A stretch of DNA of 21,797 bases from Candidatus Micrarchaeota archaeon (GCA_040754495.1 JBFMCO010000061.1:1-21797); one strand, 5' to 3'. Counted from the stretch's first letter, positions 3,414 through 21,797 are shown. Numbers and translations are program-made. Notes: a model not told the origin generated them from the letters alone.

Positions 3414-3427
3414 GTTCCGGGTTCCCT

Positions 3428-3477
3428 ATTGTCCGGCGCTCCGGACAATGGGCGCAGGGAACTGCGTTCCCTGCCGC
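3428..3477. repeat. REP-like twin-hairpin element, copy 2
   Basis: attgtccgg-cgct-ccggacaat, gggc, gcagggaac-tgc-gttccctgc, cgc, located between two convergent stop codons (3413 and 3493). Confidence 0.8.
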
Positions 3478-3492
3478 GGGGTTTTGGACGGC

Positions 3493-3672: not shown

Positions 3673-3703
3673 TTGTACACCAGAATGCGTTCAATATTAT
3701 CAA

Positions 3704-4861: not shown

Positions 4862-4915
4862 GCGAATCAGCAACCCTTTCCCAGACAACTTATTTAACTT
4901 TTCCTGATGGGCCGC

Positions 4916-5359
4916 TCAGGTGCACCGGCCGACGAGCGGCTTGTCCCCGTATTGCACCTGCTCCGTGAAATTGGTGAGGTTGTAGGTCATCGTCAGGTCG
5001 AACTCGAACCCTTCCCCGGGCTCGCCGCATTCTATGCCCATATCGCCCGTCACAACCTTCTCCTCGCCGCCCCGGAACGTGACGTTCGAGACGTTGAGTC
5101 CGCTGCCGTCGAATGTCATGTTTATCAGGCGGACCTTCTCGCTGAGGCGATTGGACATCCTGAGGGTTACCGTCGTGTTGTTTATCGCGAATGCCGTTAT
5201 CGAGAACGGCCTCGCCCCGCTCCAGTATGACGCGCTCTGCACCTCGCGGGCAGGCCCGCCGAGGCCCGGAAAGAACCCGAGCAGCGCGATGACTACCAAG
5301 GCTACGATTAGCACTACGGCCAGTATGACAAGGTATTCGGTCGCTCCCTGTCCTTTCAT
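4916..5359 (-). CDS. Class III signal peptide (type IV pilin-like) protein (147 aa)
   Basis: MKG|QGATEYLVILAVVLIVALVVIALLGFFPG has K-G, +1 Q, +5 E and a hydrophobic helix. It also has NxT sequons, two Cys and a GGGGTGG SD. Confidence 0.88.
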   Translation of the reverse strand: MKGQGATEYLVILAVVLIVALVVIALLGFFPGLGGPAREVQSASYWSGARPFSITAFAINNTTVTLRMSNRLSEKVRLINMTFDGSGLNVSNVTFRGGEEKVVTGDMGIECGEPGEGFEFDLTMTYNLTNFTEQVQYGDKPLVGRCT

Positions 5360-5405
5360 TCGGCCACCCCCGGAAATCCTACGAAGAGGGGATTTTTAAT
5401 TATGC

Positions 5406-6476
5406 CTACGACGAGAGCTTCCCGATTGCGTCCAGGCAAAGGTCGAGGCTCTCCATCCTGAAGTTCCCCATGTGGGCGATGCGCAGTCCCGTGTCCTTGA
5501 ACCTGCCCCTGGAGCCGACTATCTTTATCTGGTGCTCGGTCGCGAGTCTTGCCTTTATGGTCTTGGCCTGCTCCGCGTCCTTGCACACGAAGCCCGTGAC
5601 CGTGCTCGACTCGAAGCCCTTCTCGGCAATCAGCGGGAACCCCATTTTTTGCAGCCGCGAGCGCACATGCTCCGCGGCCTCAGAGTGGCGCTTCACGGCC
5701 CCGGGCAGCCCGCCTCCGGCATCCAGCACGTCGAAAGCCTTCTCGAGCGCCCAGAAGAGGGTGATTGCAGGGGTGTTCGGCGTCTGCTGGTCCTGTTCGT
5801 AGCGCTTCCTGTGCCTGCGCAGGTCGCAGTAGTAGCTGGGTATGGACTTGCGCTTCGTGTAGACTTCCACGGCCTCCCGGCCGAGGCCGATTAAGGCCAT
5901 GCCCGGGGGGGCGGCTATGCCCTTCTGGCTTCCGGTCACGAAGGCGTCGACATTGTATTTCTTCATGTCGAATTCCGTCCCGGGCCATGCCGAGATGCCG
6001 TCAATAATCGTGAGCATCCCCTTTGATTTGGCGTAGGCGCATATCTCCTTTATCTGGTTGCGCACGCCCATGCTGGTCTCGTTATAGACCATGGCGAGCG
6101 CCCGCGCCTTGCTGTTGTCTATGTGCTCTTTCGCCCGCTCCAGATTCCAGCCCTTCCCGTCCTCCATCCGCTGGATTACGGGCTTTGCGTATACCTCCAC
6201 GGTCTTGGCCTGGTTGTCCCCGAACTCGCCATTCGGAAGGCAGAGCACCGAATCGTCCTTTTCAAGGAGGTTCAGGACGAGGGTTTCGAGGCCGAGCGCC
6301 CCGGAGCCGGTGAGGACGTAAGCTTCTTCTGCGGAGTAATAGCCCTTCAGGCGCGTCACAAGGTCCCCGTAGAGCTTCGTGAACTCGCCCGAGCGGTGCG
6401 TTATCATCTCTTTGCACTGCGCGTCGAGGATTTCCTTCAGGACGGGCACCGGGCCCGGAGCCAACAGTATGGACAT
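5406..6476 (-). CDS. Class V PLP-dependent aminotransferase (AGT/SPT-like, 356 aa)
   Basis: LLAPGPVPV, HRSGEF, GSGALGLE, YNETSMG, IIDGIS, TGSQKG (PLP lysine), TPNTP, LRIAHMG. Confidence 0.92.
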   Translation of the reverse strand: MSILLAPGPVPVLKEILDAQCKEMITHRSGEFTKLYGDLVTRLKGYYSAEEAYVLTGSGALGLETLVLNLLEKDDSVLCLPNGEFGDNQAKTVEVYAKPVIQRMEDGKGWNLERAKEHIDNSKARALAMVYNETSMGVRNQIKEICAYAKSKGMLTIIDGISAWPGTEFDMKKYNVDAFVTGSQKGIAAPPGMALIGLGREAVEVYTKRKSIPSYYCDLRRHRKRYEQDQQTPNTPAITLFWALEKAFDVLDAGGGLPGAVKRHSEAAEHVRSRLQKMGFPLIAEKGFESSTVTGFVCKDAEQAKTIKARLATEHQIKIVGSRGRFKDTGLRIAHMGNFRMESLDLCLDAIGKLSS

Positions 6477-7054: not shown

Positions 7055-8188
7055 ATGGCAATCATGGCAGGACAGAAAGGCGAAAACCTGAAGAAGTGGT
7101 TCATGAAGAACCTCATCCTCCCGAACAACGAGATAATAGACAAGCCCGGTTACATAGCGAACCTGCAACTCGGCCAGAAGAGCGGAAAAATCTATATGAG
7201 GGAGGTCTTCGTCCCAGAAACGTACATGGCTGATGTGGAGGACGCGTTCATCGAGAGATACGGCGTCGAGGGCAAGCGAGCGCTCTATGAGGCGGGCAAG
7301 CGCTGGGGCATCCTTTTCGACGAGGTGGTGAGGGCGCCCACGAAGAAGCAGATGAGCGCCGAGGAATTCCGCGGGTTCGTGGATACCCTCATCAAATACC
7401 TTAAATCGGAGTATGCCTCGGACATGAGCTACAGCCTGGACATGGACAACGATACCCTGGAGCTGATTTCGAAGGACCTCCTGATATGTAGCAAAAACGG
7501 CAAGGGCTATTTCCTGCTCGGGGCGCTGACCGGCGCGTGGAGCTTCATAACATGCAGGGACGACGTGGAGGGGGCGCAAAGGGCATGCCAGGGGCAGGGG
7601 AGCCCGGAATGTGTCATGGTGTGCGCCCCGAAAGGAAGCCTGCGGCCCGGGGAGTATTTCAGGGTAGAGCGCAGCGAGACGATGTCGGTGGAGAGGTATG
7701 CATTCCTGAACAAGCTGAGAAAGCTCGATTACGCGAAGAATTCTCTGCTCGACCTTCTCACTGCTCGAATTGTGACCTACGAGGGCGGTTTCTTCAGGCT
7801 CGGAAACGAGAGGCTCGTCTTCAATGAATGCAGCTTCATCTATGTCCTGGAATCCGTGCTGGCGCGGCTGGAAGGGGGCGAAGAGCTGTTTTTCAAGGTC
7901 ACTTTCGATTATTTCAAGAGATTCGGCCGCAAGATGAAGATAAGCAGGAAGGGCATCACGGACCTTCTGCCCGCGCTCGGGTGGGGGGGAATTCTCGTCG
8001 GCAGCGACAACTCATCCGTTTTGTGCGAAAGCCATCCCTGGGCGGGCGCGGGGGTAAGGAGCAGGTTCGTGATGTTCCGGGGCATGCTCTCGGGCCTGGT
8101 GTCCTCGTATTCGGGGAGGGATGTATTCTACAGGAGGGCCAACACGAGCATCTCGCAGGGCGTGATGGACATGAGGCTGGAGGCGTGA
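7055..8188 (+). CDS. Tandem V4R-domain protein (377 aa)
   Basis: Two V4R-like repeats (LYEAGKRWG...LTGAW...CQGQGSPEC; FFKVTFDYF...LGWG...FRGMLSGLVS). Only the first keeps the CxxxGxxxC motif. Confidence 0.75.
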   Translation: MAIMAGQKGENLKKWFMKNLILPNNEIIDKPGYIANLQLGQKSGKIYMREVFVPETYMADVEDAFIERYGVEGKRALYEAGKRWGILFDEVVRAPTKKQMSAEEFRGFVDTLIKYLKSEYASDMSYSLDMDNDTLELISKDLLICSKNGKGYFLLGALTGAWSFITCRDDVEGAQRACQGQGSPECVMVCAPKGSLRPGEYFRVERSETMSVERYAFLNKLRKLDYAKNSLLDLLTARIVTYEGGFFRLGNERLVFNECSFIYVLESVLARLEGGEELFFKVTFDYFKRFGRKMKISRKGITDLLPALGWGGILVGSDNSSVLCESHPWAGAGVRSRFVMFRGMLSGLVSSYSGRDVFYRRANTSISQGVMDMRLEA

Positions 8189-8189
8189 C

Positions 8190-9095
8190 ATGGGGATTTT
8201 CAGGAAGGCAAGGGACATTTTCGTGCTGTCCGATTTCTACCCGGCCCTCATGGCCGCCCTCATCGCGCCTTTTTTCTACCTTTCATTCGCACTTCCATTC
8301 GACTGGCTGGTCTTCACGGCCATCCTGTTCGAATGCTACCTAATTTTCGCACTGAACAGGCTGATAGACCGGGAGATAGACGCGGTGAACGCGCCCGAGA
8401 GAACGAGGTTCCTCAACGCTCACGGGACGTTCATCCCGGTCATAGCCGCGGCCGGGTTCTCTTCGACCATGACGCTGCTGTATTCCAGCAATGTCACGGT
8501 TTTCGCCATCCTACTCGTCAATTTCCTCATGAGCTTGTTCTACAGCTTCCCGCTGATACCGCGGCCGCTTGGCGAGATGCTGGGTTTCAGGAGGTTCAAG
8601 GAAGCCCTCTTTCTCAAGACTTTTTCAGTGGCACTAATGCACGCAATATTCGTACTGGCGCTTGCAGCCGATTCCGGTTTCACCGCGCCGGCCGCGGTGG
8701 GCGTGACCTTCATCTACGTACTGATGAGGTTCTTCATCAACAGCACGTTCTTCGACATCCGCGACATCGAAGGCGACGCGAAACTCGGGATAACGACCAT
8801 CCCGATATATCTCGGAAAGGAGAGGGCCCTCATTTACATGCATTACTTGAATTTGGCCACGATGCTGCTGCCGCTCATCGCGTATTCTGTTTCCGCCGTG
8901 CCGCTCGCGTTCGTCATCTTCTCGATTGCGGCTTACGCCTACGGCCTCTACTACATCACCGAGGCGCAGAAAAGCAAGGCAGACCTGAAGAGCCTCGTCG
9001 GGTATTACGTCGAGGGGGACCTCCTTCCCGCCCTCGCCTTCACCGCCCTCGTGGTGTTTTTGAGCCCATATATCCCTGCGCCCGGACTGGGCTAG
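8190..9095 (+). CDS. UbiA-family prenyltransferase (301 aa)
   Basis: Multi-TM protein with Asp-rich motifs NRLIDREID and FDIRDIEGD, plus GITTIP. The substrate cannot be assigned. Confidence 0.85.
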   Translation: MGIFRKARDIFVLSDFYPALMAALIAPFFYLSFALPFDWLVFTAILFECYLIFALNRLIDREIDAVNAPERTRFLNAHGTFIPVIAAAGFSSTMTLLYSSNVTVFAILLVNFLMSLFYSFPLIPRPLGEMLGFRRFKEALFLKTFSVALMHAIFVLALAADSGFTAPAAVGVTFIYVLMRFFINSTFFDIRDIEGDAKLGITTIPIYLGKERALIYMHYLNLATMLLPLIAYSVSAVPLAFVIFSIAAYAYGLYYITEAQKSKADLKSLVGYYVEGDLLPALAFTALVVFLSPYIPAPGLG

Positions 9096-9853
9096 GGGTT
9101 TGAGATGGATATGCCATCCTCTCCAAAATCGAAGCCGTAGATGCCCCCCTTAATCCGGCTGTTCCTCATCTTCACCACTTCGAGAGTGCGCTGGGTGTCC
9201 TCGCCTATCGAGGTCGCCTTCATCAGCACAATCCCGTCGCACGCGAATTCGCTCAGGGTGTCCCTGCTGTACCACTCGCTGCTGCGGGACACCTCAGACA
9301 CGAGAAGGGTGCAGATGCCTTTCTGCCCCAGCAGCTTCACCAGGTCCACCATTATCTTGCGCACCACTATGCCGTCCCACTCCGGGGGCGTGGTTATCGG
9401 CGCGTTGCCGGAGCCGTAAATCAGCTCGTCCACGGGCGTCTTCTCCAAATCCACTACGCGCGAGCGCATCCGCGCGGAGAGGACCATGTACGTTATGGAA
9501 TCCACGACGAGGCGGTTCGGCTTGAATGTCTCGAGCACCTTCTGCATCTCGTCGAAAATCTGGCCGAGGCTCAGGCGCGATATGGAAAGTATCCTGAGCA
9601 TGCCGTCCTTCTCAAGTCCCTCAAGGTCCCAGCCGAACTGCGACGCCTGCTCCCTTATCTTCTCCTCACGCTCCTCGAAGGAGATATAGAGGCCCCTCTC
9701 CTTGTGCTTCCTGCAGCCTTCGGCAAGGAACTGCAGGGCGAGAATAGTCTTCCCGGTCCCCGCAGCGCCGGAAACCAGCACTACCGAGTCCATAGGAATG
9801 CCGCCGCCTACCAGGGGATCGAGCCCGGGGATACCCGTCTTGACTTTGCGCAT
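9092..9853 (-). CDS. Single-domain KaiC/RAD55-like ATPase (253 aa)
   Basis: TGIPGLD..GGGIP, Walker A GAAGTGKT, SFEE, Walker B VVDS, EFACDGIV, KMR arginine finger. The true start is the ATG at 9853. Confidence 0.92.
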   Translation of the reverse strand: MRKVKTGIPGLDPLVGGGIPMDSVVLVSGAAGTGKTILALQFLAEGCRKHKERGLYISFEEREEKIREQASQFGWDLEGLEKDGMLRILSISRLSLGQIFDEMQKVLETFKPNRLVVDSITYMVLSARMRSRVVDLEKTPVDELIYGSGNAPITTPPEWDGIVVRKIMVDLVKLLGQKGICTLLVSEVSRSSEWYSRDTLSEFACDGIVLMKATSIGEDTQRTLEVVKMRNSRIKGGIYGFDFGEDGISISNP

Positions 9854-9875
9854 AGCACGGACTTCTTTAGGAAAA

Positions 9876-9881
9876 TTTAAA
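9876..9881. promoter_or_regulatory. Palindromic TTTAAA box centred between divergent KaiC genes
   Basis: Centre is about 25 nt from the minus ATG (9853) and about 27 nt from the plus ATG (9906). Confidence 0.55.
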
Positions 9882-9905
9882 AGGCACACCTTGGAGATTG
9901 GACGC

Positions 9906-11630
9906 ATGGCCAGGAAGAAAGCGCCGGCGGAGACGCAGCCCAGCGAAAGCTCGGAAACAGGGATAGCCGAGCTCGATGAGGCGCTGGGCGGGGGCATCCC
10001 GAAGGGAAGCGTGGTCCTGCTGGCAGGGCCGTCCGGAAGCGGAAAGACGATTCTTGCGTTCCAGTGGCTTTTCAACGGCGTGCGCAAAGGCGAGAACTGC
10101 CTCTACCTTTCCCTCACCGAGCCTCTTTATAAGAGCGTGAAGAACCTGGAGACGATGGAGTTCTACGACAGGGAGGCGCTCGAGGACGAGCGGCTGAAGA
10201 TAATAGACCTGAGAAACGTCATCGGCGACAAGGGGCTTGACGCGGACAGGGTCCTCGAATTCATAGAGAGCGAGGTCGAGAAGAACGACGTGCGTAGGCT
10301 GTGCATAGACTCGGTGACGGGCATAGCCTACCACCTTGACGACAAAGGGAAGATACGGAGGTTCATTTTCGAGCTGGGAAAGCTGCTCGGGACGCTCGGC
10401 TGCACCAGCATCCTCACAAGCGAGGTCACGGACTCCGGGCACTACTCCGTCTACGGGGTGGAGGAGTTCATATCGGACGGGATATTGAGGCTCGACCATG
10501 CGCCGAACGGCAGTCTCAGGCAGAGGAGGCTCCAGATAGTGAAGATACGCGGCCGGGGATACAGCACCGATGAGCTGCGCTTCAGGATAAAGAAGGAGGG
10601 CATAGCAGTATTGCCGAGGTTCACGGCCCCGCAGGGCGCGCAGGCGAGCGCCAGGAGGCTCTCCACCGGCAATGCCATCCTGGACGACATGCTCTCGGGT
10701 GGCGTCCTGGCAGGCTCCACAACCCTCTTGACGGGCACGACGGGCACGGGCAAGAGCATTTTCTGCATGCAGTTCGTAATGGAGGGGCTGAAGAGGGGGG
10801 AGAAGTGCCTTTATGTCGGCTTTGACGAGCCCATGGCGGAGATGATGAGGAACGCCCGGAGCGTAGGCTGGGATTTCGAGCAGTACAGAAAGAGCGGGAA
10901 GCTGCTCTGTATGTGCACGCATCCGGCCGACAGGTTCCTTGAGGAGCACCTTGGCGGGATAAAAAGCATCGTCGAAAAGGATGGTGTCGGGAGGTGCGTC
11001 GTGGATTCCCTGTCCTCGCTCTCATACAGCTTTAGCGAGGAGAAGTATTTCGCTTTCGTCAAGTCGCTGAACGACTACCTCAAAAGCCAGGGCGTCACGG
11101 CCTTCTTCACAATTGCCTCGGCTTCCGGGGCAAAGCAGCTGAGGGAGGACCAGGTGACCGTCACCATGGACAATCTCCTCATGCTGAGGCAGGTGGAGAT
11201 GGAAGGCAGGCTCACGTTCGTGCTGAACGTCATGAAGACCAAGGGCAGCACGCACAGCAAGGAGATGCGCCGATACAGTATTACGAAAGGCGGGATAAAC
11301 ATAGGGCAGACGCTGGCCGGCTACGAAGGCATCATGACCGGCGTGACGAGGAAGGTGTCGGCCAGCACCGAGGACCGGATAGCCGACGAGTTCATGCGTT
11401 TCATAGGCCCCATGGGCCAGAAGGCGTTCGACGAGCTTTCCGGGAGAGGCCTTTCCGAGCAGAGCGTTTCCGAATACATAGACTCGCTGGTCTCGGACGG
11501 CATCATGAGGCAGACCGAGGCGGAGGACTTCAGGGCCAGCGTGATGAGGCATTTCGGAAAGGAGAAGCCCCGGAAGGAGGAGCCGGGAGAAGAGAAAAAA
11601 GGCTTCTTCGAGAAGCTGTTCGGAGGATAG
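9906..11630 (+). CDS. kaiC: Double-domain KaiC-like ATPase with C-terminal extension (574 aa)
   Basis: CI: GPSGSGKT, CIDS, GVEEFISDGI, KIRG. CII: GTTGTGKS, VVDS, and VLNVMKTKGSTHSKEMRRYSI, which resembles KaiC AINVFKMRGSWHDKAIREFMI. Ends with an extra helical domain and KKGFFEKLFGG. The symbol denotes the family, not a clock function. Confidence 0.88.
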   Translation: MARKKAPAETQPSESSETGIAELDEALGGGIPKGSVVLLAGPSGSGKTILAFQWLFNGVRKGENCLYLSLTEPLYKSVKNLETMEFYDREALEDERLKIIDLRNVIGDKGLDADRVLEFIESEVEKNDVRRLCIDSVTGIAYHLDDKGKIRRFIFELGKLLGTLGCTSILTSEVTDSGHYSVYGVEEFISDGILRLDHAPNGSLRQRRLQIVKIRGRGYSTDELRFRIKKEGIAVLPRFTAPQGAQASARRLSTGNAILDDMLSGGVLAGSTTLLTGTTGTGKSIFCMQFVMEGLKRGEKCLYVGFDEPMAEMMRNARSVGWDFEQYRKSGKLLCMCTHPADRFLEEHLGGIKSIVEKDGVGRCVVDSLSSLSYSFSEEKYFAFVKSLNDYLKSQGVTAFFTIASASGAKQLREDQVTVTMDNLLMLRQVEMEGRLTFVLNVMKTKGSTHSKEMRRYSITKGGINIGQTLAGYEGIMTGVTRKVSASTEDRIADEFMRFIGPMGQKAFDELSGRGLSEQSVSEYIDSLVSDGIMRQTEAEDFRASVMRHFGKEKPRKEEPGEEKKGFFEKLFGG

Positions 11631-11631
11631 G

Positions 11632-13245
11632 ATGGGGTGGAGCATAACGAAGAAGCTCGTACTCGCCTTCCTCGCAGTCGGACTCATCCCCCTCATAAGC
11701 GCCGAGCTCCTTAGCATCGGAATACTTAAGGAAGAGCTTGAATCGGCGATAGAAAAAACGATGGGATACGTCGTGGAAAGCGCAGAAGCCGAGACCTTCT
11801 CGTATTTTGATTCCGTCGCGAGCAGGACGGTCGGTTTCACTTCGGACGGCCTGATAAGGGACGAACTGGCGGCGATTGAGGGAGGCAACAACTATTCTGC
11901 CGCCGCGCTCAACAATCATCTTTCGAGGAACAAGCTGCCCCTCGTGCCGTCCCTTGCCGGTATAATGCTGATAGGCAGGGACGGCACGGTCGTTTCCGCC
12001 TCGGACCCGAAAGAGATAGGCAAGAACGCCTCGGCCGCCGCCTTCTTCAGGAACGGCAGCCAGGGCGCATTCATGAGCGGCATCGGGAACACGGGATTCT
12101 TCGGCGTGAGCAACGGCTTCGTGGTCTCCGCGCCCGTGACCGACAGGCTCAGCAACGAACCCCTCGGCGTGCTTGCGAATTTCTTCGACACGCGGGAGCT
12201 GGAAAGACGCCTATCAAGCGTCCATACGGAAGACTACGAGGAGATAGTGTCCGTGAGGGACGTGGAGGGCCAGAAGGTATATCTCGTGGATTCGGGCGGC
12301 ACCGTGGTAATCCCGGCCGGCGGCGGCACGGCATACAGCGAGCCCGTCCGGGCATGCCTGGAGGAGAAGGAGGACTTCGTAGGCGAATACACGAACCACC
12401 TGGGGCAGGGAGTCATAGGGGCAGGCGGATGCTTCCCCTCGAGGGGCCTGGTGGTCGTAGCGGAGATAGATGCTGCCGGGGCAAGCCGTCCCATAGAGCG
12501 CTCCTACGTCCTCCTCGGGTATGTCACGCTCTTCTTCGCGACATTCGTCATACTGGTGGGGCTGATACTCTCGAGCAGCATCTCCAGGCCCGTCAAGGAG
12601 CTCACCGCCGCCATCGAGCGGATAAGCAGGGGGGGCATGGATGCCGAGGTCCCTGTATGGCTCAAGCAGAGCGGGGACGAGCTCGGCAGCCTCGCGCAGG
12701 CTTTCGACAGGACGATTGTGAGCCTGAAGATGGCCATACGGCAGTCCGCGCCCGAGCTCGTGAAGGACAAGGAGAGGCTGAGAAGCACGCTTGAGGAGAC
12801 CGAAGCTGCCACGGAAACGCTGTCGGCGATATTCGACAATGCCCGGGACGGCCTCGTGCTCATAGACGACAAGGGAATGATCGTCCGCGCCAACAAGGCA
12901 GTCGAGATGCTGTGGGGGTTCTCCCCGCGCGAGATTGAGGGCAAGATGCTGGACGAGCTGGACATGCTGGGCCAAGAGACCCGGAAACGCCTGCTCGACG
13001 CGTTCTCGCGGAGGATGAAAGGCGAGAACGTCCCGCCGTATGAAGTCGAGGTAATCAGGAAAGACGGCGTGGTAGCCTACGCGGAGGTGCGCGCTTCGGC
13101 AATTATCAAGGACGGCACCCTGAAGGGCGAGGTCGTCCTGCTCAGAGACCTGACTGATGCCCCGACTATGCGCAAGGCCGGGAGCGTGGCTGCAAGCCCG
13201 GACTCAAAGAAGGGCCATAAGGGCGGCGGAAGGAGGAAGCGCTAG
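11632..13245 (+). CDS. Membrane sensor: TM-Cache-like-TM-HAMP-PAS, no output domain (537 aa)
   Basis: Two TMs flank a Cache-like region (GIMLIGRDGTVV; VVSAPV; VYLVDSGG). HAMP (RPVKEL...DELGSLAQAF), one PAS ending RDLT, and a basic tail follow. Confidence 0.85.
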   Translation: MGWSITKKLVLAFLAVGLIPLISAELLSIGILKEELESAIEKTMGYVVESAEAETFSYFDSVASRTVGFTSDGLIRDELAAIEGGNNYSAAALNNHLSRNKLPLVPSLAGIMLIGRDGTVVSASDPKEIGKNASAAAFFRNGSQGAFMSGIGNTGFFGVSNGFVVSAPVTDRLSNEPLGVLANFFDTRELERRLSSVHTEDYEEIVSVRDVEGQKVYLVDSGGTVVIPAGGGTAYSEPVRACLEEKEDFVGEYTNHLGQGVIGAGGCFPSRGLVVVAEIDAAGASRPIERSYVLLGYVTLFFATFVILVGLILSSSISRPVKELTAAIERISRGGMDAEVPVWLKQSGDELGSLAQAFDRTIVSLKMAIRQSAPELVKDKERLRSTLEETEAATETLSAIFDNARDGLVLIDDKGMIVRANKAVEMLWGFSPREIEGKMLDELDMLGQETRKRLLDAFSRRMKGENVPPYEVEVIRKDGVVAYAEVRASAIIKDGTLKGEVVLLRDLTDAPTMRKAGSVAASPDSKKGHKGGGRRKR

Positions 13246-13256
13246 GGTGGGGTGCG

Positions 13257-15372
13257 ATGGAGCTAAGGCTGAAGATTGTCCTCGGATTCTTGTTCGTGAT
13301 TTTTCTCACCGGGCTCGTGTGGTACTCGACGATTTCCGCCCTCGTCCTCTCTTCGGAGCAGCTCGGCGAGGAGGCGAGGCAATGCCTGGCCGCCGGAAAC
13401 ATGGAGGAGCGGCTTGGCAGGGTGGAGGGGATGGTAGCGGAAGCTGAAGGGCGGGGGCAGTACGCCCTTTTTGCTGCCCTGATTGCGCTGGCACTCGGCG
13501 GCGTGCTCGGGCTCATCCTTGCCAGCTCGATTCTCGGGCCAATACGGCAGCTAACCGAGGTAATAGAGAGGATAAGCCGGGGCGAGAGGGGCGTGGAGAT
13601 ACCGGCGCGGCTCAAGGAATCCCCGGACGAGATAGGGGCTCTCGCGATGGCGTTCGACAGAACGATGGTGAGCCTCAAGATGGCGATGGGCCAGACGGCT
13701 CCCGAGCTCAAGAGGCTCCTTGAGGAGAAGGCGGCGACTGAAGCGAAGCTCCTGCGCCTGAACGGCCTGCTTGCCGCGATGAACGAAATCAGCGCCGAGG
13801 GCCTCCGAACAAGGGAGCCCCGGCGGCTCTATGAGCTTGCGTGCAGCGCAGCGGTCCAGACCGGGCCTTACGTATTCGCATGGGTCGGACTTGTTGGGGA
13901 AGACGGGCATGGTCGAGCCTGCCGCCTGCGCAGGGAAAGAGGAGGGATATCTTTCCGGGATAAGAATCTCCATAGACAAAAAGAAGCCCGAGGGCAGGGG
14001 CCCGACCGGAACCGCCATACGGGAAATGCGGCCTTTCATATGCAACGACATCCGCAGCGATGAGCGGATGCTTCCGTGGAGAGATGGGGCGCTCAGGAGG
14101 GGGTTCCAGTCGTCGGCTGCGTTCCCGCTCGTAGCCGGGGGGAAGTGCCTTGGGACGATTAACTTATATTCCGGCGAGGCCGGGGCTTTCCGTGATGACG
14201 AAGTACGCGTCCTGGCCTCACTGGCATCCAACCTGACGCTTGCGGTGGAGAGGGCCAGGGAAGCGAGCCGGGTGGAGGAGAGCGAAAAGCGCTACCGGGA
14301 CATGCTTGATGGCATGCTTGAGGGCTGCCAGCTCATCGGAAGGGACTGGCGCTACGTTTATGTGAACGATGCCGCCGCCCGGCACGGCCGCGCGGCAAAA
14401 GAGGAACTGCTGGGCAGGAAGATGTGGGAGGCGTATCCGGGCATCGAAAAAACCGGCATGTTCCGATTCCTGAAGCGCTGCATGGAAAAACGCAGTCCCC
14501 ATGTCATGGAGAACGAATTCGCCTTCCCGGACGGGACGAAAGGCTGGTTCCAGCTCAGCATACAGCCGACGCCGGGGGGCATTTTCATTCTTTCCCAGGA
14601 CATAACGGAAAGGAAAATGGCCGAGAACGCGCTGAGGGAGAGCGAAGAGAGGTATAGGACGCTCGCCGAGGCGGCGCACGACGTGATTTTCACGGTGGGC
14701 GAGGATTACCGCGTTACTTATATCAACGAGACAGGCGCTAATATGCGGGGCCTGCCGAGGGAAAAGATAGTCGGGCAGACGCTGGACGAGCTGTTCGGCC
14801 CTGATGCGGTCGCAGGGCAGAAGGAGAATATATTGGAGGTATTCCGCAGCGGGAAGCCGCTGTACAACGAGCGCATCATGCATTTCCCGGACGGCGACAA
14901 GTGGCTTGCCACCTGGCTCACCCCCCTTAAGAGCAAGGCGGGCGGGGTTTCCCTGGTAATGGGGTTGTCCAGGGACGTAAGCGAACGCAAGGTGGCGCAG
15001 TACGCCCTCATGGCCGAGAAGGAGCTCGTTGAAAGGTTCCTGAACATGGCGGGGTTCATGGTCGTCGTATTGGACAAGGACGGAAAGGTAGCGAGGATAA
15101 ACGGGAAGGGGTGCAAGGTCCTTGGCCGTTCCGAAAAGGATATCCTAGGGAAGAACTGGTTCGACAATTTCATCCCAGCGCCCATGAGGGCGAAGATGCG
15201 CGCGATCTTCAGGAAAATCATGAAGGAGAGGGGCAGGGGCGGCTTCGAGTTCTACCAGAACCCCATCCTCACCAAGGACGGCCGCGAGGTGCAGGTGAGA
15301 TGGCACAACGCAGTTGTCAGGGACCGCAGGGGAAGGCCCCTCTGGAGCATCAGCGCCGGGGAAGAACCTTGA
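13257..15372 (+). pseudogene. Membrane sensor: TM-TM-HAMP-GAF-PAS-PAS-PAS, split by a +1 frameshift at about 13896-13907 (real or artefact)
   Basis: ORF 13257-14063 matches a GAF start up to AWVGLVGEDG. ORF 13831-15372 continues the same GAF from MVEPAACAG (GRGPTGTAIRE, SSAAFPL). Removing one G joins them into about 704 aa. Confidence 0.85.
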
Positions 15373-15412
15373 ACGGCGATTCGTTCAAGTACTTTCCCGA
15401 GCTTCTGTGCGG

Positions 15413-16195
15413 TTAAGGGCGGGGAAGATGCCGGCTGATTTTGCCGCCTGAAGCGGCGTACATGAGGCCTGCGATGCCAAGCCAGACATATGATACTACA
15501 TAGAACAGCGTCACGGGATGGCTCGGCGTGTATTCCTCATAAGCGGCAAGGCGCAGGTACCATATGTCCCCGGCCGCGAGCAGGAGCAGCGAAAACCCGA
15601 AAATGAGCAGTATGGGCTGGAACTCCCTTCCTCCCAGGAAGCTGATGAGGAGCGCGGCCATCATCGAAAGCAGCAGGGTGTCGCCGAGCACGTACCCGGC
15701 ATTGATGAGGTTCTCCTCCAGCGAGGCGTCGCTGGCGGCCACGATGTCCTTGGTGTAGAGGAAAGAGCCTGCGCCGACCACGAGAAAAACCAGCAGGGCC
15801 GCGGTTGCGGTCTTTGCGGCCGGAACCGCCCTCTCGAAACCAAGGTAAAGCGAGTACAGGAACGGCACGTAGCCTGCCAGCCAGAAGAAATCCGCGGGCG
15901 AGGCCGAGGGGGCGTCTATCCCGAGCACTATCTCGTAGAAAGACCATATTCCTTCAGCCAGCGTCCACATGGCCATGGCAAGCGCAAGGTAAAAGAAGCT
16001 CACCCACGGCTGGGACGACCTCATCGATGCCGCATGCGCCCGGTAGAGGGCGAGAGCTGCGAAAGCCGCCGACAGGGTGGAGAGGATGTCGAGCAAGTTG
16101 CCGTAGAATTCCGCCTGCGAGAGCAGGAGATGGGCCGTGATGAGGAGGATGGAGAACGCCAGGCCGGAAAGGAGATAGGGCGTGCTGCGGTCCAT
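15413..16195 (-). CDS. Stand-alone multi-TM protein resembling membrane sensor input domains (about 260 aa)
   Basis: About 7-8 hydrophobic segments with motifs WTLAEGIWSFYE, SPADFFWLAGY, YVLGD and AAGDIWY, typical of N-terminal membrane domains of kinases/cyclases. No cytoplasmic domain. Confidence 0.75.
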   Translation of the reverse strand: MDRSTPYLLSGLAFSILLITAHLLLSQAEFYGNLLDILSTLSAAFAALALYRAHAASMRSSQPWVSFFYLALAMAMWTLAEGIWSFYEIVLGIDAPSASPADFFWLAGYVPFLYSLYLGFERAVPAAKTATAALLVFLVVGAGSFLYTKDIVAASDASLEENLINAGYVLGDTLLLSMMAALLISFLGGREFQPILLIFGFSLLLLAAGDIWYLRLAAYEEYTPSHPVTLFYVVSYVWLGIAGLMYAASGGKISRHLPRP

Positions 16196-16221
16196 TATCT
16201 GGATTTCCCGTGCCCAAGGCA

Positions 16222-16227
16222 TTTAAA
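16222..16227. promoter_or_regulatory. Palindromic TTTAAA box between divergent genes
   Basis: About 30 nt from both the minus ATG (16195) and the plus ATG (16256). Confidence 0.5.
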
Positions 16228-16255
16228 GCTTCTGAAAGAAATGGACGCTGATAAG

Positions 16256-16828
16256 ATGGATTCAGAGTCCCTCAAAGCAGCGCTCGTGAAAGCGCTGCAG
16301 AGCCACGCCGGCGGGGTAATCATGATGGAACTGCCGGCTGAGGATTACTTCGAGGCCAACGCGGCTGCGGTCGCCCAGCTCGCGGAAGACGGCTTCGAAG
16401 GCGTGTACATAAGCTTCCAGAGGCCGTTCGGAAACGTGTCCGGCATGCTGAAGCAGAGGGGGGTCGACACCGGAAAGATTATTTTCATAGACGTAGCGAC
16501 GGCCCTCGGCGAGGAGGAGCACGAGAAGCACAGCCGGTGCATACACATATCCCGGGAGGTAAGCGTGGATGAGCTCGTGAGGGCGGTCCACACCGGCCTG
16601 CGCCGCCTCGGCGGGAAGAAAAAGTTCGTGTTCATAGATTCGCTCACGACGATAACGCTCCACAAGCCCCTATCGGAGAGCATGAGATTCTACGAGTTCC
16701 TCGTGAGCACGGCCAAGGTCGGCGAGAGCGGCCTCGTTCTAGTGCTCAGCGTCGCGAAGGAACTCAGGCAGAAAAGGTTCATAGAGGACGTCGCAGTCCA
16801 TGCGGACGAGGTAATAGGGGTGCAGTGA
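16256..16828 (+). CDS. Inactivated KaiC/RecA-fold protein (about 190 aa; alternative start 16241)
   Basis: GVYISFQRP, KIIFID, Walker B-like FVFIDSLTT and ADEVI are present. The P-loop position reads ELPAEDY (no GKT). Confidence 0.75.
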   Translation: MDSESLKAALVKALQSHAGGVIMMELPAEDYFEANAAAVAQLAEDGFEGVYISFQRPFGNVSGMLKQRGVDTGKIIFIDVATALGEEEHEKHSRCIHISREVSVDELVRAVHTGLRRLGGKKKFVFIDSLTTITLHKPLSESMRFYEFLVSTAKVGESGLVLVLSVAKELRQKRFIEDVAVHADEVIGVQ

Positions 16829-17382
16829 TGGCGGATATCAAGAAACTGGCCAGGGAACTGGCCGAGGCGGACGAAGGAGCCGTTATCCTCGTCGAAACCC
16901 CCATAGAGAACGCACCGGAGGTCGGGCTCGAGGCCATCCGGGCCATGGTGAAGAGGGGGTACACCGGGATCATCGTCTCGGCCAGCAGGCCGTACACCAA
17001 CCTGGTCAGCGTCTATGCGAAGAACGGCATAGACACGAAAAAGGTCTTCATAATAGACTGCGTGACCAAGGCGAGCAGCGTGGAGCCCGAGGAGGCCGCC
17101 AACGTCGTCTACCTGGACAGCGTCTCGGACCTTACCACCATGTCGCTCGCGATAAACAACGCCATGGAGAGCGTGAAGGGCGGCAAGTTCATCTTCCTCG
17201 ACTCCATAAGCACGATGCTAATCTACAACAGGCCGGACATCTTCGCGAAATTCGTTCATATAATGCTGACCAAGATGAGGGTGGGCAACGTGAGCGGGAT
17301 ACTCATCTCGTTCGAGAGCGAGAACAACAAGGAGGTCCGGGCCGAAATCGTGCAGCTCTGCGACAAGGTTATTAAGGTGTGA
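16828..17382 (+). CDS. Inactivated KaiC/RecA-fold protein, paralog of the upstream gene (184 aa)
   Basis: GIIVSASRP, KVFIID, FIFLDSISTML and CDKVI are present. The P-loop position reads ETPIENA. TGATG coupling to the upstream gene. Confidence 0.78.
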   Translation: MADIKKLARELAEADEGAVILVETPIENAPEVGLEAIRAMVKRGYTGIIVSASRPYTNLVSVYAKNGIDTKKVFIIDCVTKASSVEPEEAANVVYLDSVSDLTTMSLAINNAMESVKGGKFIFLDSISTMLIYNRPDIFAKFVHIMLTKMRVGNVSGILISFESENNKEVRAEIVQLCDKVIKV

Positions 17383-17403
17383 AGCGCACCATAGTAGGGG
17401 AAG

Positions 17404-20058
17404 ATGGCATCCGACGCTGATTCTGGGGGGATGTTCAGGCGCATAGTCGAGTCGGCACGCGAGATGATATTCGTGGTCCGGCCGGACGGCAGGATAGAAT
17501 ACGCGAACCCGTACGCCGTCTCGCTCATGAAAAGGCGGCCAGGCGAAATCAGTGGAAAGAGCATAGGCGAGCTTTTCGCCCCGGAAGCGGCAGGGGGCTT
17601 CCAGGAGATACTCAGGGAGGTGTCCACGAAGGGCGAGGCATCCTACAGGGAGGACAAGGTGCATACCCCTGCCGGCGACATCTGGCTCGGAAGCTGGCTG
17701 ATTCCCATGGGGAAGGGCGGGAAAGTCGCAGGCTTCGCAAGGGACATAACAGCGATAAAGGATGCCGAGGCGTCCCTGGAAGAGAGCCGCAAGAGGTATC
17801 TGACGATGTTCGAGGCCTCGCCGGAGGGCGTCGTCCTGCTTGACAGGAATGGGTTGATACTGGATGCCAACGCGCGCCTCAAGGAGTGGCTGGGATATGA
17901 GCCTTCCGAGGCGATAGGAAAACCGCTCTCGGAGATGCCGTTCCTTCCGCCGGCAACGAGAGAGCTGCTGCTTTCCAGGCTCAGGGAGAGGGTAAAGGGC
18001 AGGGAGCTCGAGCCGGCCGACTTCGAGGCGGTGGCCAAGGACGGAAAGCACGTCTGGCTCAGGGTGAGCTCCAACCCGGTCAGGGACGAGCGGGGGAGGA
18101 CCCAGGGGGTGCTGGCGGTCGTAGCCAACATAACCGACAGGAAGGAAGCGGAAATGACGCTCGCGGAGAGCGAGGAGAGGTTCCGCAGGATGTTCGAGGA
18201 GGGGACCGTCGGCATTTCCATTGTAGGCCTCGACGGCAGGTTCGCCAAGGCGAACAACGCGCTGTGCGGGATGCTCGGCTACAGCGAGGCGGAACTCAGG
18301 AAAATCGCGTTCGGGGAACTGACGCACCCGGATGAGAGGGAAAGGGACATAGATGCCGCGAAGCAGATGGCGGAGGGCAAGAGGCAGTCCTACCGGGTGG
18401 AGAAAAGGTACATCCGCAAGAGCGGGGAAACGCTATGGGCATCGCTCAACGCCTCGCTCATGCGCGGAACCGACGGAAAGCCCAAGTATTTCCTCTCGGT
18501 CATAGAGGACATAACAGAGCGGAAGGCGGCGGAGGAGGCCCTCAGCGAAAGCAAGGAGACGCTCAGGCAGCTCGCGGACGCATCCTTCGAAGGAATCGCA
18601 ATAACCGACAACGGAAAGATACTGGCCGTCAACAGGACGCTCGAGGCCATGCTTGGCCGCGGCGGCTCCGAGCTGGCCGGGCGCAACGCGGCCGAGTTCA
18701 TAGCCCCCCGCTCAAGGAAAGATGCCCAAAGAAGGCTGGACGAGGGAGGGGAAGAGCCGTTCGAGTGCGCATGCATAAGGAGCGACGGCTCGGAGATAGA
18801 AACCGAGGTCAGGAGCAAGGCCATAGCATATCATGGAAGGAAGGTAGATGTCATCGTCATGAGGGACGTCACCGAGGCCAAGGCGGCTCGCAAGGCGCTC
18901 GCGCAGAGCGAGGAGAGGTTCAGGCTCATAGTCGAGCGGAGCAGGGATATCATCATGCTGACAGACCCGCGCGGCACCATCATCTACCTCAGCCCTGCCT
19001 GCAGGGAAATCCTCGGCTACCATCCCTCGGACCTTGTGGGGAAAGAGATGATAATGGTGCACCCGGACGATGCCCCGATGGTCAGGAGGGCCATGATGAG
19101 CGCCGCCTCGGGGCAGAGCGTCTCGCTCGAATACCGGATAGCTGCCAGGGACGGCACCGCCAGATGGGTCTCGCACTCGCTCGGGCCGATAAAGGACGAT
19201 GGCAAGGTCATCATGGTCGTCGGCGTCATGCGGGACATCACCGAGCGCAGGGGCGCAGAGGAAGCCATGAGGGAGTCCAGGGACGTCTATGCCGACCTCG
19301 TAGAGAACCTCAATATAGGGATATTCCGCTGGAGCGCCGGCGTGAGCGGGCGGTTCCTCCAGGTGAACCAGGGGCTTGCCGACATGTTCGAGGCAGGCTC
19401 GAAGGACGACCTCATGCGGATGCCGCTTGTCGAGCTGCATGCGAACCACTCCGACAGGCGGATGGTGCTCGACAAGCTCATGAGGGAGGGGTGCCTCAAG
19501 GGCGAGGAGGTGGAATTCGTCACCCTGGGGGGCAGGCGCTTCTGGGGCTCGCTCACCGCGGTCAAGAAGGTCGGCAGGGACGGGGGCCCGTATTTCGACG
19601 GAATCATCGAGGACGTGACTTCAAGGAAGCTGGCCGAGCGGATGATGCTCGAGGAGACGGGGAAGGCGAAGGAACTCATAGACATAGCCGACGAGATGAT
19701 AATAGTCATCGGGGCCGACGAGCGGGTGGAGCTGGTGAACAGGAAGGGATGCGGTATTCTGGGCTATCCCGAGGCCCAGGTGGTCGGAAAGAACTGGTTC
19801 GATTCTTTCATACCCGAGAGGAACAGGGAGGCCATGAGGGAGGTCTTCAGGCAGCTCATCGATGGGAAGGCCACCGCCCCGGAGTTCTACGAGAATCCCG
19901 TCCTGGGAAAGGGCGGGAAGGAGATGAACGTGAGATGGCATAACACTGTCCTGCGGGGAAGCGGCGGGAGGATTACGGCCACGCTCAGCTCGGGGACGCT
20001 GACAGGGCGGCCGGCGGAGGGGCGCAGGGCCGCCGCGCCGGGGCATCAGGCTTATTAA
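17404..20058 (+). CDS. Cytoplasmic protein of seven tandem PAS domains, no output domain (884 aa)
   Basis: Six PAS/PAC units end in RDIT, ANIT, EDIT, RDVT, RDIT and EDVT with ERK-type linkers. A seventh GKNWFD-type PAS ends the protein. Confidence 0.9.
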   Translation: MASDADSGGMFRRIVESAREMIFVVRPDGRIEYANPYAVSLMKRRPGEISGKSIGELFAPEAAGGFQEILREVSTKGEASYREDKVHTPAGDIWLGSWLIPMGKGGKVAGFARDITAIKDAEASLEESRKRYLTMFEASPEGVVLLDRNGLILDANARLKEWLGYEPSEAIGKPLSEMPFLPPATRELLLSRLRERVKGRELEPADFEAVAKDGKHVWLRVSSNPVRDERGRTQGVLAVVANITDRKEAEMTLAESEERFRRMFEEGTVGISIVGLDGRFAKANNALCGMLGYSEAELRKIAFGELTHPDERERDIDAAKQMAEGKRQSYRVEKRYIRKSGETLWASLNASLMRGTDGKPKYFLSVIEDITERKAAEEALSESKETLRQLADASFEGIAITDNGKILAVNRTLEAMLGRGGSELAGRNAAEFIAPRSRKDAQRRLDEGGEEPFECACIRSDGSEIETEVRSKAIAYHGRKVDVIVMRDVTEAKAARKALAQSEERFRLIVERSRDIIMLTDPRGTIIYLSPACREILGYHPSDLVGKEMIMVHPDDAPMVRRAMMSAASGQSVSLEYRIAARDGTARWVSHSLGPIKDDGKVIMVVGVMRDITERRGAEEAMRESRDVYADLVENLNIGIFRWSAGVSGRFLQVNQGLADMFEAGSKDDLMRMPLVELHANHSDRRMVLDKLMREGCLKGEEVEFVTLGGRRFWGSLTAVKKVGRDGGPYFDGIIEDVTSRKLAERMMLEETGKAKELIDIADEMIIVIGADERVELVNRKGCGILGYPEAQVVGKNWFDSFIPERNREAMREVFRQLIDGKATAPEFYENPVLGKGGKEMNVRWHNTVLRGSGGRITATLSSGTLTGRPAEGRRAAAPGHQAY

Positions 20059-20081
20059 GGTATTTTCCGCTTATGACGTCC

Positions 20082-21797
20082 ATGCGGGGGCAATCGAGCG
20101 CGGAATTCCTCATCCTCCTTGCGGTAACCCTTACCATCCTTGTCATAGTGTTCGTCATCGCATGGGACCAGTTCTCGAGCCTGCAGCTGACGAAGGGCGG
20201 CATGGAGGCGCGCAACTCGGTTGAGACGCTCAAGGCCGCCGCGACCGAGGTCTACGGGCAGGGAGAGGGCGCCCGCAGGCTCGTCTACATAAAGATACCG
20301 CCCAACTACGCGCCGAACGCCTCCTTCGTCGCCAACAGGACGATTGCCCTGAAGGTGAGGGAAAACGACATAGCGAGCACGACCGATTTCGACGTCTACG
20401 GCTCCCTCCCAGGCACCGAGGGCGGGCATTTCGTGTGGGTCATTTCCGAGGGCAACCGCGTCCGCATAGGCAACATATTCCTCTTCGTCGACAAGAACTC
20501 AGTGCTCGTCCAGATGCTCCAGACGCAGACGAAGGGCGACAACTTCACCGTGCAGAACATCGGCGACAAGCCGATAAACGTGACGCTCACCCCCTCATGG
20601 ACGCATTCGCCGGTAGTGAACCTCACGCTCAGCGACACGAATTTCAGCCTCGGACCGGGCGATTCGCAGACGGTCGAGGTAGAATTCACCTCATCGTCCA
20701 GCGCGGCAGGCGACTACACCGGGACGCTCGAGGTATTCGGCGATGACGGGGACATCCAGGAAACGTTCCCGCTCCTGCTGGACGCTGACGTGCTGGTGCC
20801 CGACGTGCAGGCGAATATATCCAACGTAAGCGGCGTCGGCGTGATAGGGCATATCTGGTACCAGGCGGTGCCGAGAAACCAGTCGGCCTCAAGGACGTTC
20901 TCCATCTGCAGCCTTCCCAACATAAGCGTGACGACGCTGACGTTCACCGGCACCGGCACGGCCGGGGCGTGGCTGCAGAACACGACGGCCGGCCCCCTTC
21001 CCCCGGACAGCTGCCTCAACCACATGCTGACGCTTAACGTGCCGGCCGGGGCAGCCCTCGGCAACAACACGGGCACGATAGAGATATCGGGCGACGGCAT
21101 CTACAACGACACGATAATAGTGATAATTAACGTCCTGCCCATGGACACCCAGCCCCCAGTCATCACCAACATGAGCCGCTCGCCCCAGCCCGCATTCGTG
21201 CACCAGTTCCTCACCATAAACCTGAGCGTCACGGACGTCAATACCGGCAACAGCAACATAAAGTACTGCGAGATAAAGATAGACAACGGGACACTGCAGA
21301 ACATGACTGCCGTGGACGGAATCTTCGATTCACCCAGGGAGAATGCTTCAATCAGCTATGCGCCGTATTTCATCCGGGCAGGCAACCATACCGCTTCGGC
21401 AAGGTGCGCGGACGCGGGTGGCAACCTCGGGAATTTCACGAACCTTTCATTCGTGATGCACAAGGAGATACTCGTGGTCTTCAAGGACGACGAGCCGGAG
21501 GAGGACGAGGCGCTGTGGGTATACTTCCTGAGCTTCCAGACATCGCAGCTGGGCTATGCCTGGAGCTACGACATGGCATTCGCAGACGACGTCAATAGCG
21601 GAGCCATCGCGCTGAACGCGTACGCGACGCTGCTTTACGGGGATTATGAGGAGGGTGTCGGCAACGACGACACGGTAAGGGCCTTCAACTCGAGCGGGAA
21701 GGCGACCATGCTTTTCTCCGATGCGCTCAAGGAGGGGCCGAGGGAACTCGGCCTCACGAACAACCGGGGGGTGTCGCAAAGCCCGACCACGACCATG
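20082..21797 (+). CDS. Large class III signal peptide surface protein (pilin-like N-terminus plus Ig-like domains), 3' partial; absent from the ORF track
   Basis: MRG|QSSAEFLILLAVTLTILVIVFVI (alternative ATG at 20073). The frame is open to the window end (at least 572 codons). It has beta-rich repeats, a DTQPPVIT Ig-like motif and about 22 NxS/T sequons. Confidence 0.85.
   Translation, partial: MRGQSSAEFLILLAVTLTILVIVFVIAWDQFSSLQLTKGGMEARNSVETLKAAATEVYGQGEGARRLVYIKIPPNYAPNASFVANRTIALKVRENDIASTTDFDVYGSLPGTEGGHFVWVISEGNRVRIGNIFLFVDKNSVLVQMLQTQTKGDNFTVQNIGDKPINVTLTPSWTHSPVVNLTLSDTNFSLGPGDSQTVEVEFTSSSSAAGDYTGTLEVFGDDGDIQETFPLLLDADVLVPDVQANISNVSGVGVIGHIWYQAVPRNQSASRTFSICSLPNISVTTLTFTGTGTAGAWLQNTTAGPLPPDSCLNHMLTLNVPAGAALGNNTGTIEISGDGIYNDTIIVIINVLPMDTQPPVITNMSRSPQPAFVHQFLTINLSVTDVNTGNSNIKYCEIKIDNGTLQNMTAVDGIFDSPRENASISYAPYFIRAGNHTASARCADAGGNLGNFTNLSFVMHKEILVVFKDDEPEEDEALWVYFLSFQTSQLGYAWSYDMAFADDVNSGAIALNAYATLLYGDYEEGVGNDDTVRAFNSSGKATMLFSDALKEGPRELGLTNNRGVSQSPTTTM

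Follow-up and report, generated by a model that had tools for sequence, protein, structure and literature searches.

The window analysed here is the whole of contig C61 (21.8 kb) from the genome G000 of a small, symbiotic Candidatus Micrarchaeota archaeon (1.63 Mb in 72 contigs, 80% complete), and its positions 7055-20058 hold sensors that lack output domains together with proteins of the KaiC fold. We judge, with some reserve, that these genes probably make up a KaiC-centred signal-transduction cassette, in which the sensors act by contact on KaiC and on KaiC-fold proteins without ATPase motifs, here called iKaiC. The core of the cassette has a fixed order that is new here, namely a double-domain KaiC with a C-terminal tail, an output-less HAMP receptor, iKaiC-A and iKaiC-B, and the core genes are tightly coupled, with gaps or overlaps of 1-11 nt. 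This order recurs in Micrarchaeota, Undinarchaeales, Woesearchaeota, Hadesarchaea and Thermoplasmata, with the caveat that the Woesearchaeota, Hadesarchaea and Thermoplasmatales examples are partial loci without the HAMP receptor. The evidence consists of domain content, synteny, the structure of a receptor clade and gene fusions.

To define domain content, the open reading frames (ORFs) of 7055-20058 were scanned with Pfam and NCBIfam, and domains were scored at E<=0.01. Over these 13 kb, the scans and a motif scan agreed with a first-pass annotation of the sequence in finding two HAMP domains, one GAF domain, 11 PAS domains (1+3+7), three P-loop-intact KaiC domains and two P-loop-less KaiC-fold proteins; one Cache-like domain is also present. 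HisKA, HATPase_c, REC, GGDEF/EAL and HTH domains had no match at this threshold in any gene of the stretch, and no PF00015 MCPsignal match followed the HAMP domains, which upholds the claim that the sensors carry no output domain. The next gene was likewise said to begin within 11-40 nt of each sensor gene, and the spacings are 11, 40 and 14 nt. The description of the locus as kinase-free did not hold up, because the double KaiC is probably an autokinase; the locus lacks a histidine kinase and the genome has one. The window holds 10 of the 11 PAS_9 matches and two of the three HAMP matches of the whole genome, a concentration beyond chance, and encodes four of its roughly seven KaiC-like proteins. 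Because nearly all PAS domains of the genome lie there, the locus is probably the main sensory organ of the organism.

Two of the sensors are membrane receptors encoded in tandem. Sensor 1 (11632-13245, plus strand; 537 aa), delimited by Pfam and a transmembrane (TM) scan, comprises a TM segment, a dCache-like domain, a second TM segment, a HAMP domain and a PAS domain, after which it ends in a basic tail (…KKGHKGGGRRKR) without an output domain. The gene is intact, and its product is 68% identical to the relative P0121. Its dCache_1 match of 24-26 bits lies below the cut-off of 45, and relatives in the same clade score 56-64 bits. The HAMP domain belongs to a clade-specific subtype with the signature ...AFDRTxVSLK(L/M)A...APEL.... 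Sensor 2 (13257-15372, plus strand), assigned by Pfam and tblastn, consists of two TM segments, a HAMP domain of the same subtype, a GAF domain and three PAS domains, again with no output domain, and its gene is frameshifted.

To place these receptors among their relatives, we used the dCache-HAMP part of sensor 1 as the query in an exhaustive search, which returned 3425 relatives. Among the best 68 of these, HisKA was present in 37, HATPase_c in 36 and GGDEF in three. In a FastTree phylogeny of 153 rows with SH-like support, the window receptor falls in a clade of 15 rows (SH-like 99), none of which has a kinase. The first-pass annotation had asked whether orthologues of the sensors normally carry kinase domains; the answer is no for the orthologues in the clade and yes for most of the more distant homologues. 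Kinase labels on the tree come from phmmer with one kinase query, and many of the rows labelled "no-kinase" elsewhere in the tree may stem from truncated contig ends or have a kinase that this query missed; our conclusions on the receptors therefore use the all-output-less clade only. That clade includes the receptors of three genus-mates (G005, G006 and G010) and of Undinarchaeales; five of its rows come from KaiC/iKaiC cassettes, and a further three that were looked up do so likewise. Because all 15 rows of this well-supported clade are without a kinase, the kinase-less receptor is a stable lineage trait and not a product of decay. In the clade alignment, the end of the HAMP domain and the motif that follows it are nearly invariant (AFDRTxVSLKLAMxxTAPELK) and the C-terminal tail is basic; certain members stop about 50 residues past the HAMP domain. 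The receptors of the clade end in a short Lys/Arg-rich tail (e.g., window 13210-13245) whatever domains precede it. A similar basic tail is seen in the 120-aa membrane protein that occupies the place of the receptor in the Woesearchaeota locus L033.

We also examined where the HAMP subtype occurs. A profile of the 65-residue segment with this HAMP end and post-HAMP motif was searched in 301 genomes drawn evenly from the phylum. It gave eight matches of at least 80 bits, in six genomes, and in all six every such match has an iKaiC-A match no more than about 3 kb away. Five of these six genomes are genus-mates, and the counts therefore do not represent six independent events; the Undinarchaeales locus and the locus of an unclassified archaeon are independent cases of the linkage. 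In the latter, a MASE3-HAMP receptor carries the same HAMP subtype. Thus, the transmitter element of these receptors is the HAMP domain itself, and the KaiC/iKaiC genes are its constant companions. The third HAMP protein of the genome (C31:9027-9473, equivalent to L036:4028-4474) is a TM-TM-HAMP protein of 148 aa that ends in ...SFNRIITSLKFAV... and a basic tail; it resembles the cassette HAMP subtype at 34 bits, lies distant from any KaiC gene and has uninformative neighbours.

A third sensor, the 7-PAS cytoplasmic protein (17404-20058, plus strand; 884 aa), matches PAS_9 in seven stretches (E 1e-91) and also has no output domain. Its best non-self relative is 31% identical, its relatives are mostly kinases, and its last PAS domain resembles the last PAS domain of sensor 2 and that of P0123.

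The double KaiC (9906-11630, plus strand; 574 aa) matches PF06745 in two stretches (E 2.8e-98) and has two Walker A motifs, GPSGSGKT at residue 41 and GTTGTGKS at residue 277. A long ORF at 9702-11630 extends past the true start at 9906, as does another, at 15518-16828, past the true start of iKaiC-A at 16256. Solved KaiC structures match both domains (E 2e-88 to 1e-79, ~40% identity), and the protein shares ~40% identity with cyanobacterial KaiC. All eight aligned orthologues retain the equivalent of the phosphosite S431, as Thr418 in the window and as Ser in the other seven; the equivalent of T432 is Val in the window and varies among the orthologues. The identity to cyanobacterial KaiC and the retention of the S431 equivalent suggest that the double KaiC is probably an autokinase. 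The circadian models scored below their equivalog cut-offs, with 373.3 bits for NF006799 (cut-off 408) and 283.2 bits for TIGR02655 (cut-off 546), and no KaiB (PF07689) was found in G000 (80% complete), G005, G006 or G010. Based on these results, we interpret the protein, as far as its sequence allows, as probably a KaiC-type ATPase and Ser/Thr autokinase rather than a clock component.

Seven of the eight orthologues share a C-terminal extension of ~75 aa with the motif EFxRFIGPMG...YIDSLV..GI.K.EDA..F, which in the window (11340-11630, residues ~478-574) has no Pfam match. An Atlas model of the extension resembles a small helical DUF8082-like domain, and the stretch is too short for the resemblance to be relied on. 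DUF8082-like domains occur in Ser/Thr kinases, cyclases and an archaeal HAMP kinase cluster. The remaining intact KaiC domain is that of the single-domain KaiC-like ATPase (9092-9853, minus strand; 253 aa), which matches PF06745 (E 6e-56), has the Walker A motif GAAGTGKT and keeps the catalytic EE pair; its G010 orthologue is 58% identical and has the same position.

Next to these ATPases, the locus encodes a pair of KaiC-fold proteins in which a motif scan found no G..G.GK[ST] sequence. These are iKaiC-A (16256-16828, plus strand; 190 aa), a KaiC/RecA-fold pseudo-ATPase recognised with Foldseek on an AF2 model, and iKaiC-B (16828-17382, plus strand), which has 184 aa when counted from the ATG in a TGATG overlap. 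In the alignment, iKaiC-A has QR at the place of the KaiC catalytic EE, and its KaiC Pfam match is weak (E 5.7e-4, 19.8 bits vs a cut-off of 26.6). iKaiC-B matches DUF7504 with 35.3 bits (cut-off 27) and KaiC with E 1.2e-7. The two are paralogues of one another according to hhalign (99.8% probability, E 1.6e-29). A profile comparison based on single sequences matched iKaiC-A to the single KaiC only weakly (12% probability), and the fold search decided the matter. The iKaiC-A model (pLDDT 90) has its best Foldseek matches in PH0321, PH0284, SSO2452 and KaiC, and is thus closest to archaeal single-domain KaiC-like proteins and KaiC. As judged from the model and the profile matches, iKaiC-A and iKaiC-B have the KaiC fold and have lost the ATPase motifs. 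The 138 homologues of iKaiC-A (~50% identity) range over Hadesarchaea, Undinarchaeales, Thermoplasmata, Aenigmarchaeota, Woesearchaeota and Micrarchaeota. Foldseek also matches yeast Elongator (8asv_G), and weak Pfam matches to Elongator subunits were seen, Elong_Iki1 for iKaiC-A and PAXNEB for the KaiCs; three RecA-fold paralogues in one operon are reminiscent of the Elp4/5/6 heterohexamer.

The first-pass annotation had suggested a search for the same gene set in other DPANN genomes, and the cassette recurs in several archaeal phyla. A search of genome contigs for related loci with the double KaiC gave a single match, bacterial and irrelevant. In G005, G006 and G010, downstream of the double-KaiC orthologue (~50% identity) and in the same orientation come a dCache-HAMP(-PAS/GAF) receptor that lacks an output domain and, after it, iKaiC-A. 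A small membrane-protein gene precedes the receptor in G010, and a minus-strand membrane-protein gene is found there in G006; G010 additionally keeps iKaiC-B, the V4R-UbiA pair described below and the divergent single KaiC. The contexts of two receptor homologues, P0127 and P0123, repeat the gene set of the window, including the minus-strand membrane protein. At greater distance, the Undinarchaeales locus reads double KaiC, dCache-HAMP receptor, iKaiC-A, iKaiC-B, PAS-MetOD1, KaiC and KaiC; that of the unclassified archaeon reads double KaiC, MASE3-HAMP receptor, iKaiC-A and iKaiC-B; and that of Woesearchaeota reads double KaiC, 120-aa membrane protein, iKaiC-A and iKaiC-B. Loci in Hadesarchaea, Thermoplasmatales and one further metagenome contig consist of KaiC, iKaiC-A and iKaiC-B, and the HAMP receptor is absent from these three as it is from the Woesearchaeota locus. 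The PAS-MetOD1 gene of Undinarchaeales (L029:11223-12155) comes directly after iKaiC-B and hints at the form that the missing output may take; MetOD1 is an output-type domain otherwise found in receiver proteins of methanogens. On the Micrarchaeota contig L038, where V4R, UbiA and convergent KaiC genes lie close to an iKaiC gene, a HepT/MNT-type toxin-antitoxin pair (L038:7595-8403) stands between the iKaiC and KaiC genes.

Gene fusions join the same parts. In a Thermoplasmata relative, a 1512-aa KaiC-KaiC-PAS-GAF-PAS-HisKA-HATPase fusion (L030:5441-9979), in which the conserved KaiC tail is missing, precedes iKaiC-A and iKaiC-B. The 7-PAS protein has PAS-DUF835 (iKaiC) fusions among its relatives, and a REC-PAS-PAS-DUF835 fusion has been listed (Galperin et al. 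2018, PMC5847659). As far as domain architecture can tell, these fusions support the view that PAS arrays and KaiC-fold domains are physically coupled. Downstream of the L030 fusion lie genes for a PAS-rich protein of 1223 aa and for a protein with CHASE4 and HAMP domains.

Upstream of the core, the window encodes a V4R-fold protein, a UbiA-family enzyme and the single KaiC. For the protein at 7064-8188 (plus strand; 374 aa), the first-pass count of two V4R domains fails at the level of sequence, where the V4R profile gives E 0.18 (12.4 bits vs a cut-off of 31), and stands at the level of fold. Its AF2 model, built with 25 homologues, reaches pLDDT 87, and Foldseek identifies a tandem V4R/Bet3 fold through its best matches, which are TRAPPC3/Bet3 and the sensory V4R domains of MopR/DmpR/PoxR; each of these aligns with roughly one half of the protein, at target TM-scores of 0.5-0.62. 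Some of its 26 homologues are named "predicted hydrocarbon binding protein", one has a precomputed PF02830 match, and a Cys cluster (C145, C178, C186 and C190) is nearly invariant among them. The V4R-type domains of MopR/DmpR/PoxR are sensors of aromatic compounds, and the V4R-fold protein is predicted from its modelled fold to be a sensor of small hydrophobic ligands.

One nucleotide downstream, at 8190-9095 (plus strand), lies the gene for a UbiA-family membrane prenyltransferase (301 aa, ~7 TM segments), which matches PF01040 above the cut-off (E 2.1e-17, 63.7 bits) and has family-level matches only in NCBIfam. UbiA is an enzyme, and the stretch is therefore not purely sensory; the first-pass annotation, which had seen only input and transmission modules, needs amending in this respect. 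The order V4R, UbiA, single KaiC is repeated in G010, in the P0127 context, where a 370-aa gene is followed by UbiA and then a KaiC gene, and on L038. A stand-alone membrane domain had also been noted, and such a protein is present with 269 aa, on the minus strand at 15413-16222 and distinct from the UbiA gene. A TM scan gives it at least five TM segments, and it has no match in Pfam or NCBIfam. Homologues in the same position occur in G006 (34% identity) and L035 (30%), and the P0127 context has a 261-aa minus-strand gene there.

The locus is flanked by genes for proteins with class III (type IV pilin-like) signal peptides, at 4916-5359 (minus strand) and 20073-21797 (plus strand). The latter begins 14 nt past the 7-PAS gene and runs off the contig, and encodes a large type IV pilin-like surface protein (signal peptide MRG|QSSAEF...) for which the Class_IIIsignal and Ig-like matches are weak; its orthologue in G006 is 33% identical and adjoins a KaiC gene. 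Type IV pilus genes (T2SSE, T2SSF and pilins) lie near the cassette in three loci (L030, the P0127 context and L038), the T2SSE/T2SSF genes within ~5-8 kb. The KaiC-like proteins CirA and ArlH act on type IV filament ATPases (PMC10983859), and together with the nearby pilus genes this makes a pilus output a reasonable, albeit weak, guess. Farther upstream, genes in 871-6476 code for the nuclease NurA, a protein with HEAT repeats and an aminotransferase of class V, of which the HEAT protein and NurA are syntenic in G010 and the HEAT protein and aminotransferase in G005; ORFs in 1876-3703 have no family match. An anti-phage defence system was considered and rejected, as PADLOC gave only short P-loop-level matches (mad8 and AbiO).

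Based on these features, we propose a mechanism in which the double KaiC, as a predicted ATPase and Ser/Thr autokinase with its conserved 75-aa extension, would serve as the hub, and the translationally coupled, ATPase-dead iKaiC-A and iKaiC-B would form a heteromeric adaptor or ring partner of it. The receptors, which are without the histidine-kinase transmitter of most homologues and keep the HAMP subtype and basic tail, would touch the KaiC/iKaiC complex directly, and through this contact alter the ATPase activity and phosphorylation state of the complex. The sensing head is exchangeable, as dCache or MASE3, and further inputs from the cytoplasm would enter through the PAS and GAF domains and through the 7-PAS protein, which is encoded separately. 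The V4R-UbiA-single-KaiC trio would constitute a second, ligand-sensing branch. Output would most likely proceed via contact with other proteins, perhaps those of nearby type IV pilus-like machinery. A complex prediction for the KaiC CII domain and tail with two copies of the sensor 1 HAMP-PAS-tail region gave a score of 0.15 (mark 0.32), which counts neither for nor against the proposal.

Several points weigh against this proposal. Binding, the direction of signalling, autophosphorylation and output are steps that we infer. A one-base frameshift splits the GAF domain of sensor 2, which tblastn with the G005 orthologue places at 13713-13892 in one frame and at 13900-14259 in another, with the shift between 13893 and 13909, near G-runs. 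It could be an assembly error or mark a real pseudogene, and one or more components may therefore be inactive or wrongly assembled. The 7-PAS protein is without a conserved orthologue in related cassettes and is counted as a member by adjacency only. A pilus link is seen in a minority of contexts (~5 of 14). Furthermore, iKaiC-A occurs in only 14 of the 301 phylum genomes, and because the cassette is so rare and patchy, it is dispensable. Finally, a full kinase is fused to KaiC in the Thermoplasmata relative, and two-component proteins are encoded elsewhere in this genome and in those of the three cassette-bearing genus-mates, which makes cross-talk with two-component systems conceivable.

These last facts bear on an alternative that we regard as unlikely, in which the sensors are co-sensors of two-component signalling that form heterodimers through HAMP/PAS with a kinase encoded on contig C41 or control receivers encoded on C56 and C33, and the KaiCs are mere neighbours or a parallel pathway. 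A check for such genes had been advised at the outset, and the genome does have one histidine kinase, the PAS and HATPase protein of C41 (its other HATPase_c matches are GyrB, TopoVI-B and a MORC-like protein), and three receiver proteins, two on C56 and one on C33; the cassette-bearing G005, G006 and G010 likewise encode one or more histidine kinases and one or more receiver proteins each. The sensor module is also homologous to that of many histidine kinases, and the Thermoplasmata fusion would fit. However, apart from that fusion, no examined cassette includes a kinase or receiver gene, and it is iKaiC-A that the HAMP subtype adjoins in all six genomes. Receiver domains are present in 34 of 40 genus genomes, cassette-bearing or not, and most of these are without the cassette, so that there is no specific co-occurrence.

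A timer is also conceivable, and we think it quite improbable: the cassette would be a KaiBC-type hourglass or clock in which the iKaiC pair replaces KaiB/KaiA and the sensors entrain it. The resemblance of the double KaiC to circadian KaiC at ~40% identity and the kept S431 equivalent fit this idea, and the KaiC extension is reminiscent of the long tail found in Rhodobacter KaiC (the sequence matches include PDB 8dba and 8fwi), but the same four genomes yielded no KaiB, the T432 position is Val here and variable elsewhere, and the NF006799 and TIGR02655 scores stay under their equivalog cut-offs. We would give very little credence to the remaining possibility, that the sensors are decaying histidine-kinase remnants in a shrinking symbiont genome and have no present role. 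The frameshift in sensor 2, the mostly kinase-bearing relatives and missing orthologue of the 7-PAS protein, and the fact that both PAS-rich proteins stop exactly at the end of a PAS domain are what decay could look like. The output-less clade, however, is well supported and spans several phyla, and its HAMP and post-HAMP motifs hardly vary; the gene order is conserved, as is the translational coupling, and sensor 1 is intact. A bolder extension of the KaiC-centred cassette, which we offer as speculation that is more likely wrong than right, is that receptors of the HAMP lineage exchanged the kinase transmitter for a KaiC Ser/Thr autokinase ring reached via dead KaiC adaptors. This would be a third general transmembrane design beside two-component and chemotaxis systems, spread by gene transfer among archaeal phyla, and it might control pilus-like attachment in host-dependent DPANN archaea.

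Known systems share individual features with the cassette. ArlH and CirA (PMC10983859) are KaiC-like regulators of the archaellum and motility that bind a type IV filament ATPase, and pilus or pilin-like genes lie near several cassettes; archaellum genes are absent here, and the link to pili is one of neighbourhood only. The REC-PAS-PAS-DUF835 protein (PMC5847659, Table 2) likewise couples PAS sensors to an inactivated KaiC fold, but in that protein the parts form one chain under the control of a receiver domain, whereas the cassette has separate genes and no receiver, and its iKaiCs are DUF7504/DUF7090-like rather than DUF835. With Cache-HAMP(-PAS) histidine kinases, the receptors share the module of TM segment, dCache, TM segment, HAMP and PAS, and the window clade differs from them in having no DHp/HisKA and HATPase domains, a diverged HAMP end (AFDRTxVSLKLAM) and a basic tail. 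Cyanobacterial KaiABC with CikA and SasA has in common with the cassette a double KaiC with Walker motifs and the S431 equivalent, sensing partners that bind KaiC (predicted contact in the present case) and a link to histidine kinases, which here is found in one fused relative. In contrast to KaiABC, neither KaiB nor KaiA was found, conservation does not extend to the T432 equivalent, the circadian models fall short of their cut-offs, and the places of KaiA and KaiB are taken by two dead KaiC paralogues together with membrane HAMP receptors.

The closest precedent is conceptual. Archaea mostly have few two-component systems. Makarova, Galperin and Koonin (cited in PMC5847659 and PMC10983859) reportedly proposed in 2017, on computational grounds, that archaeal KaiC-like proteins act as hubs with iKaiC partners and sensor inputs, and the first-pass annotation, which knew of such hub proposals and took a complete locus with output-less sensors to be uncharacterised, overstated the case as far as the concept goes. 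The proposal and the cassette have the same elements, with active KaiC-like ATPases beside P-loop-less KaiC-fold proteins and sensors, predicted signalling by protein contact, and a setting in archaea poor in two-component systems; a KaiC/iKaiC/sensor neighbourhood conserved across archaeal lineages, as in the hub proposal, is found here as well. To our knowledge, no member of the cassette has been studied experimentally, and we know of no test of the hub proposal for a receptor-linked module. With four to five proteins, the cassette is a compact and widely conserved test case for it, from which one would predict that the HAMP end of the receptor contacts KaiC/iKaiC and that the receptor influences both ATPase activity and phosphorylation at Thr418. 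The Thermoplasmata fusion, in turn, shows how the KaiC route and histidine-kinase signalling can join. The cassette seems to differ from the hub proposal in the double KaiC with its tail, the dedicated clade of output-less receptors with its HAMP subtype and the fixed iKaiC pair; besides the core order, what is new here is that receptor clade and subtype, the KaiC tail and phosphosite, and the kinase-bearing fusion.

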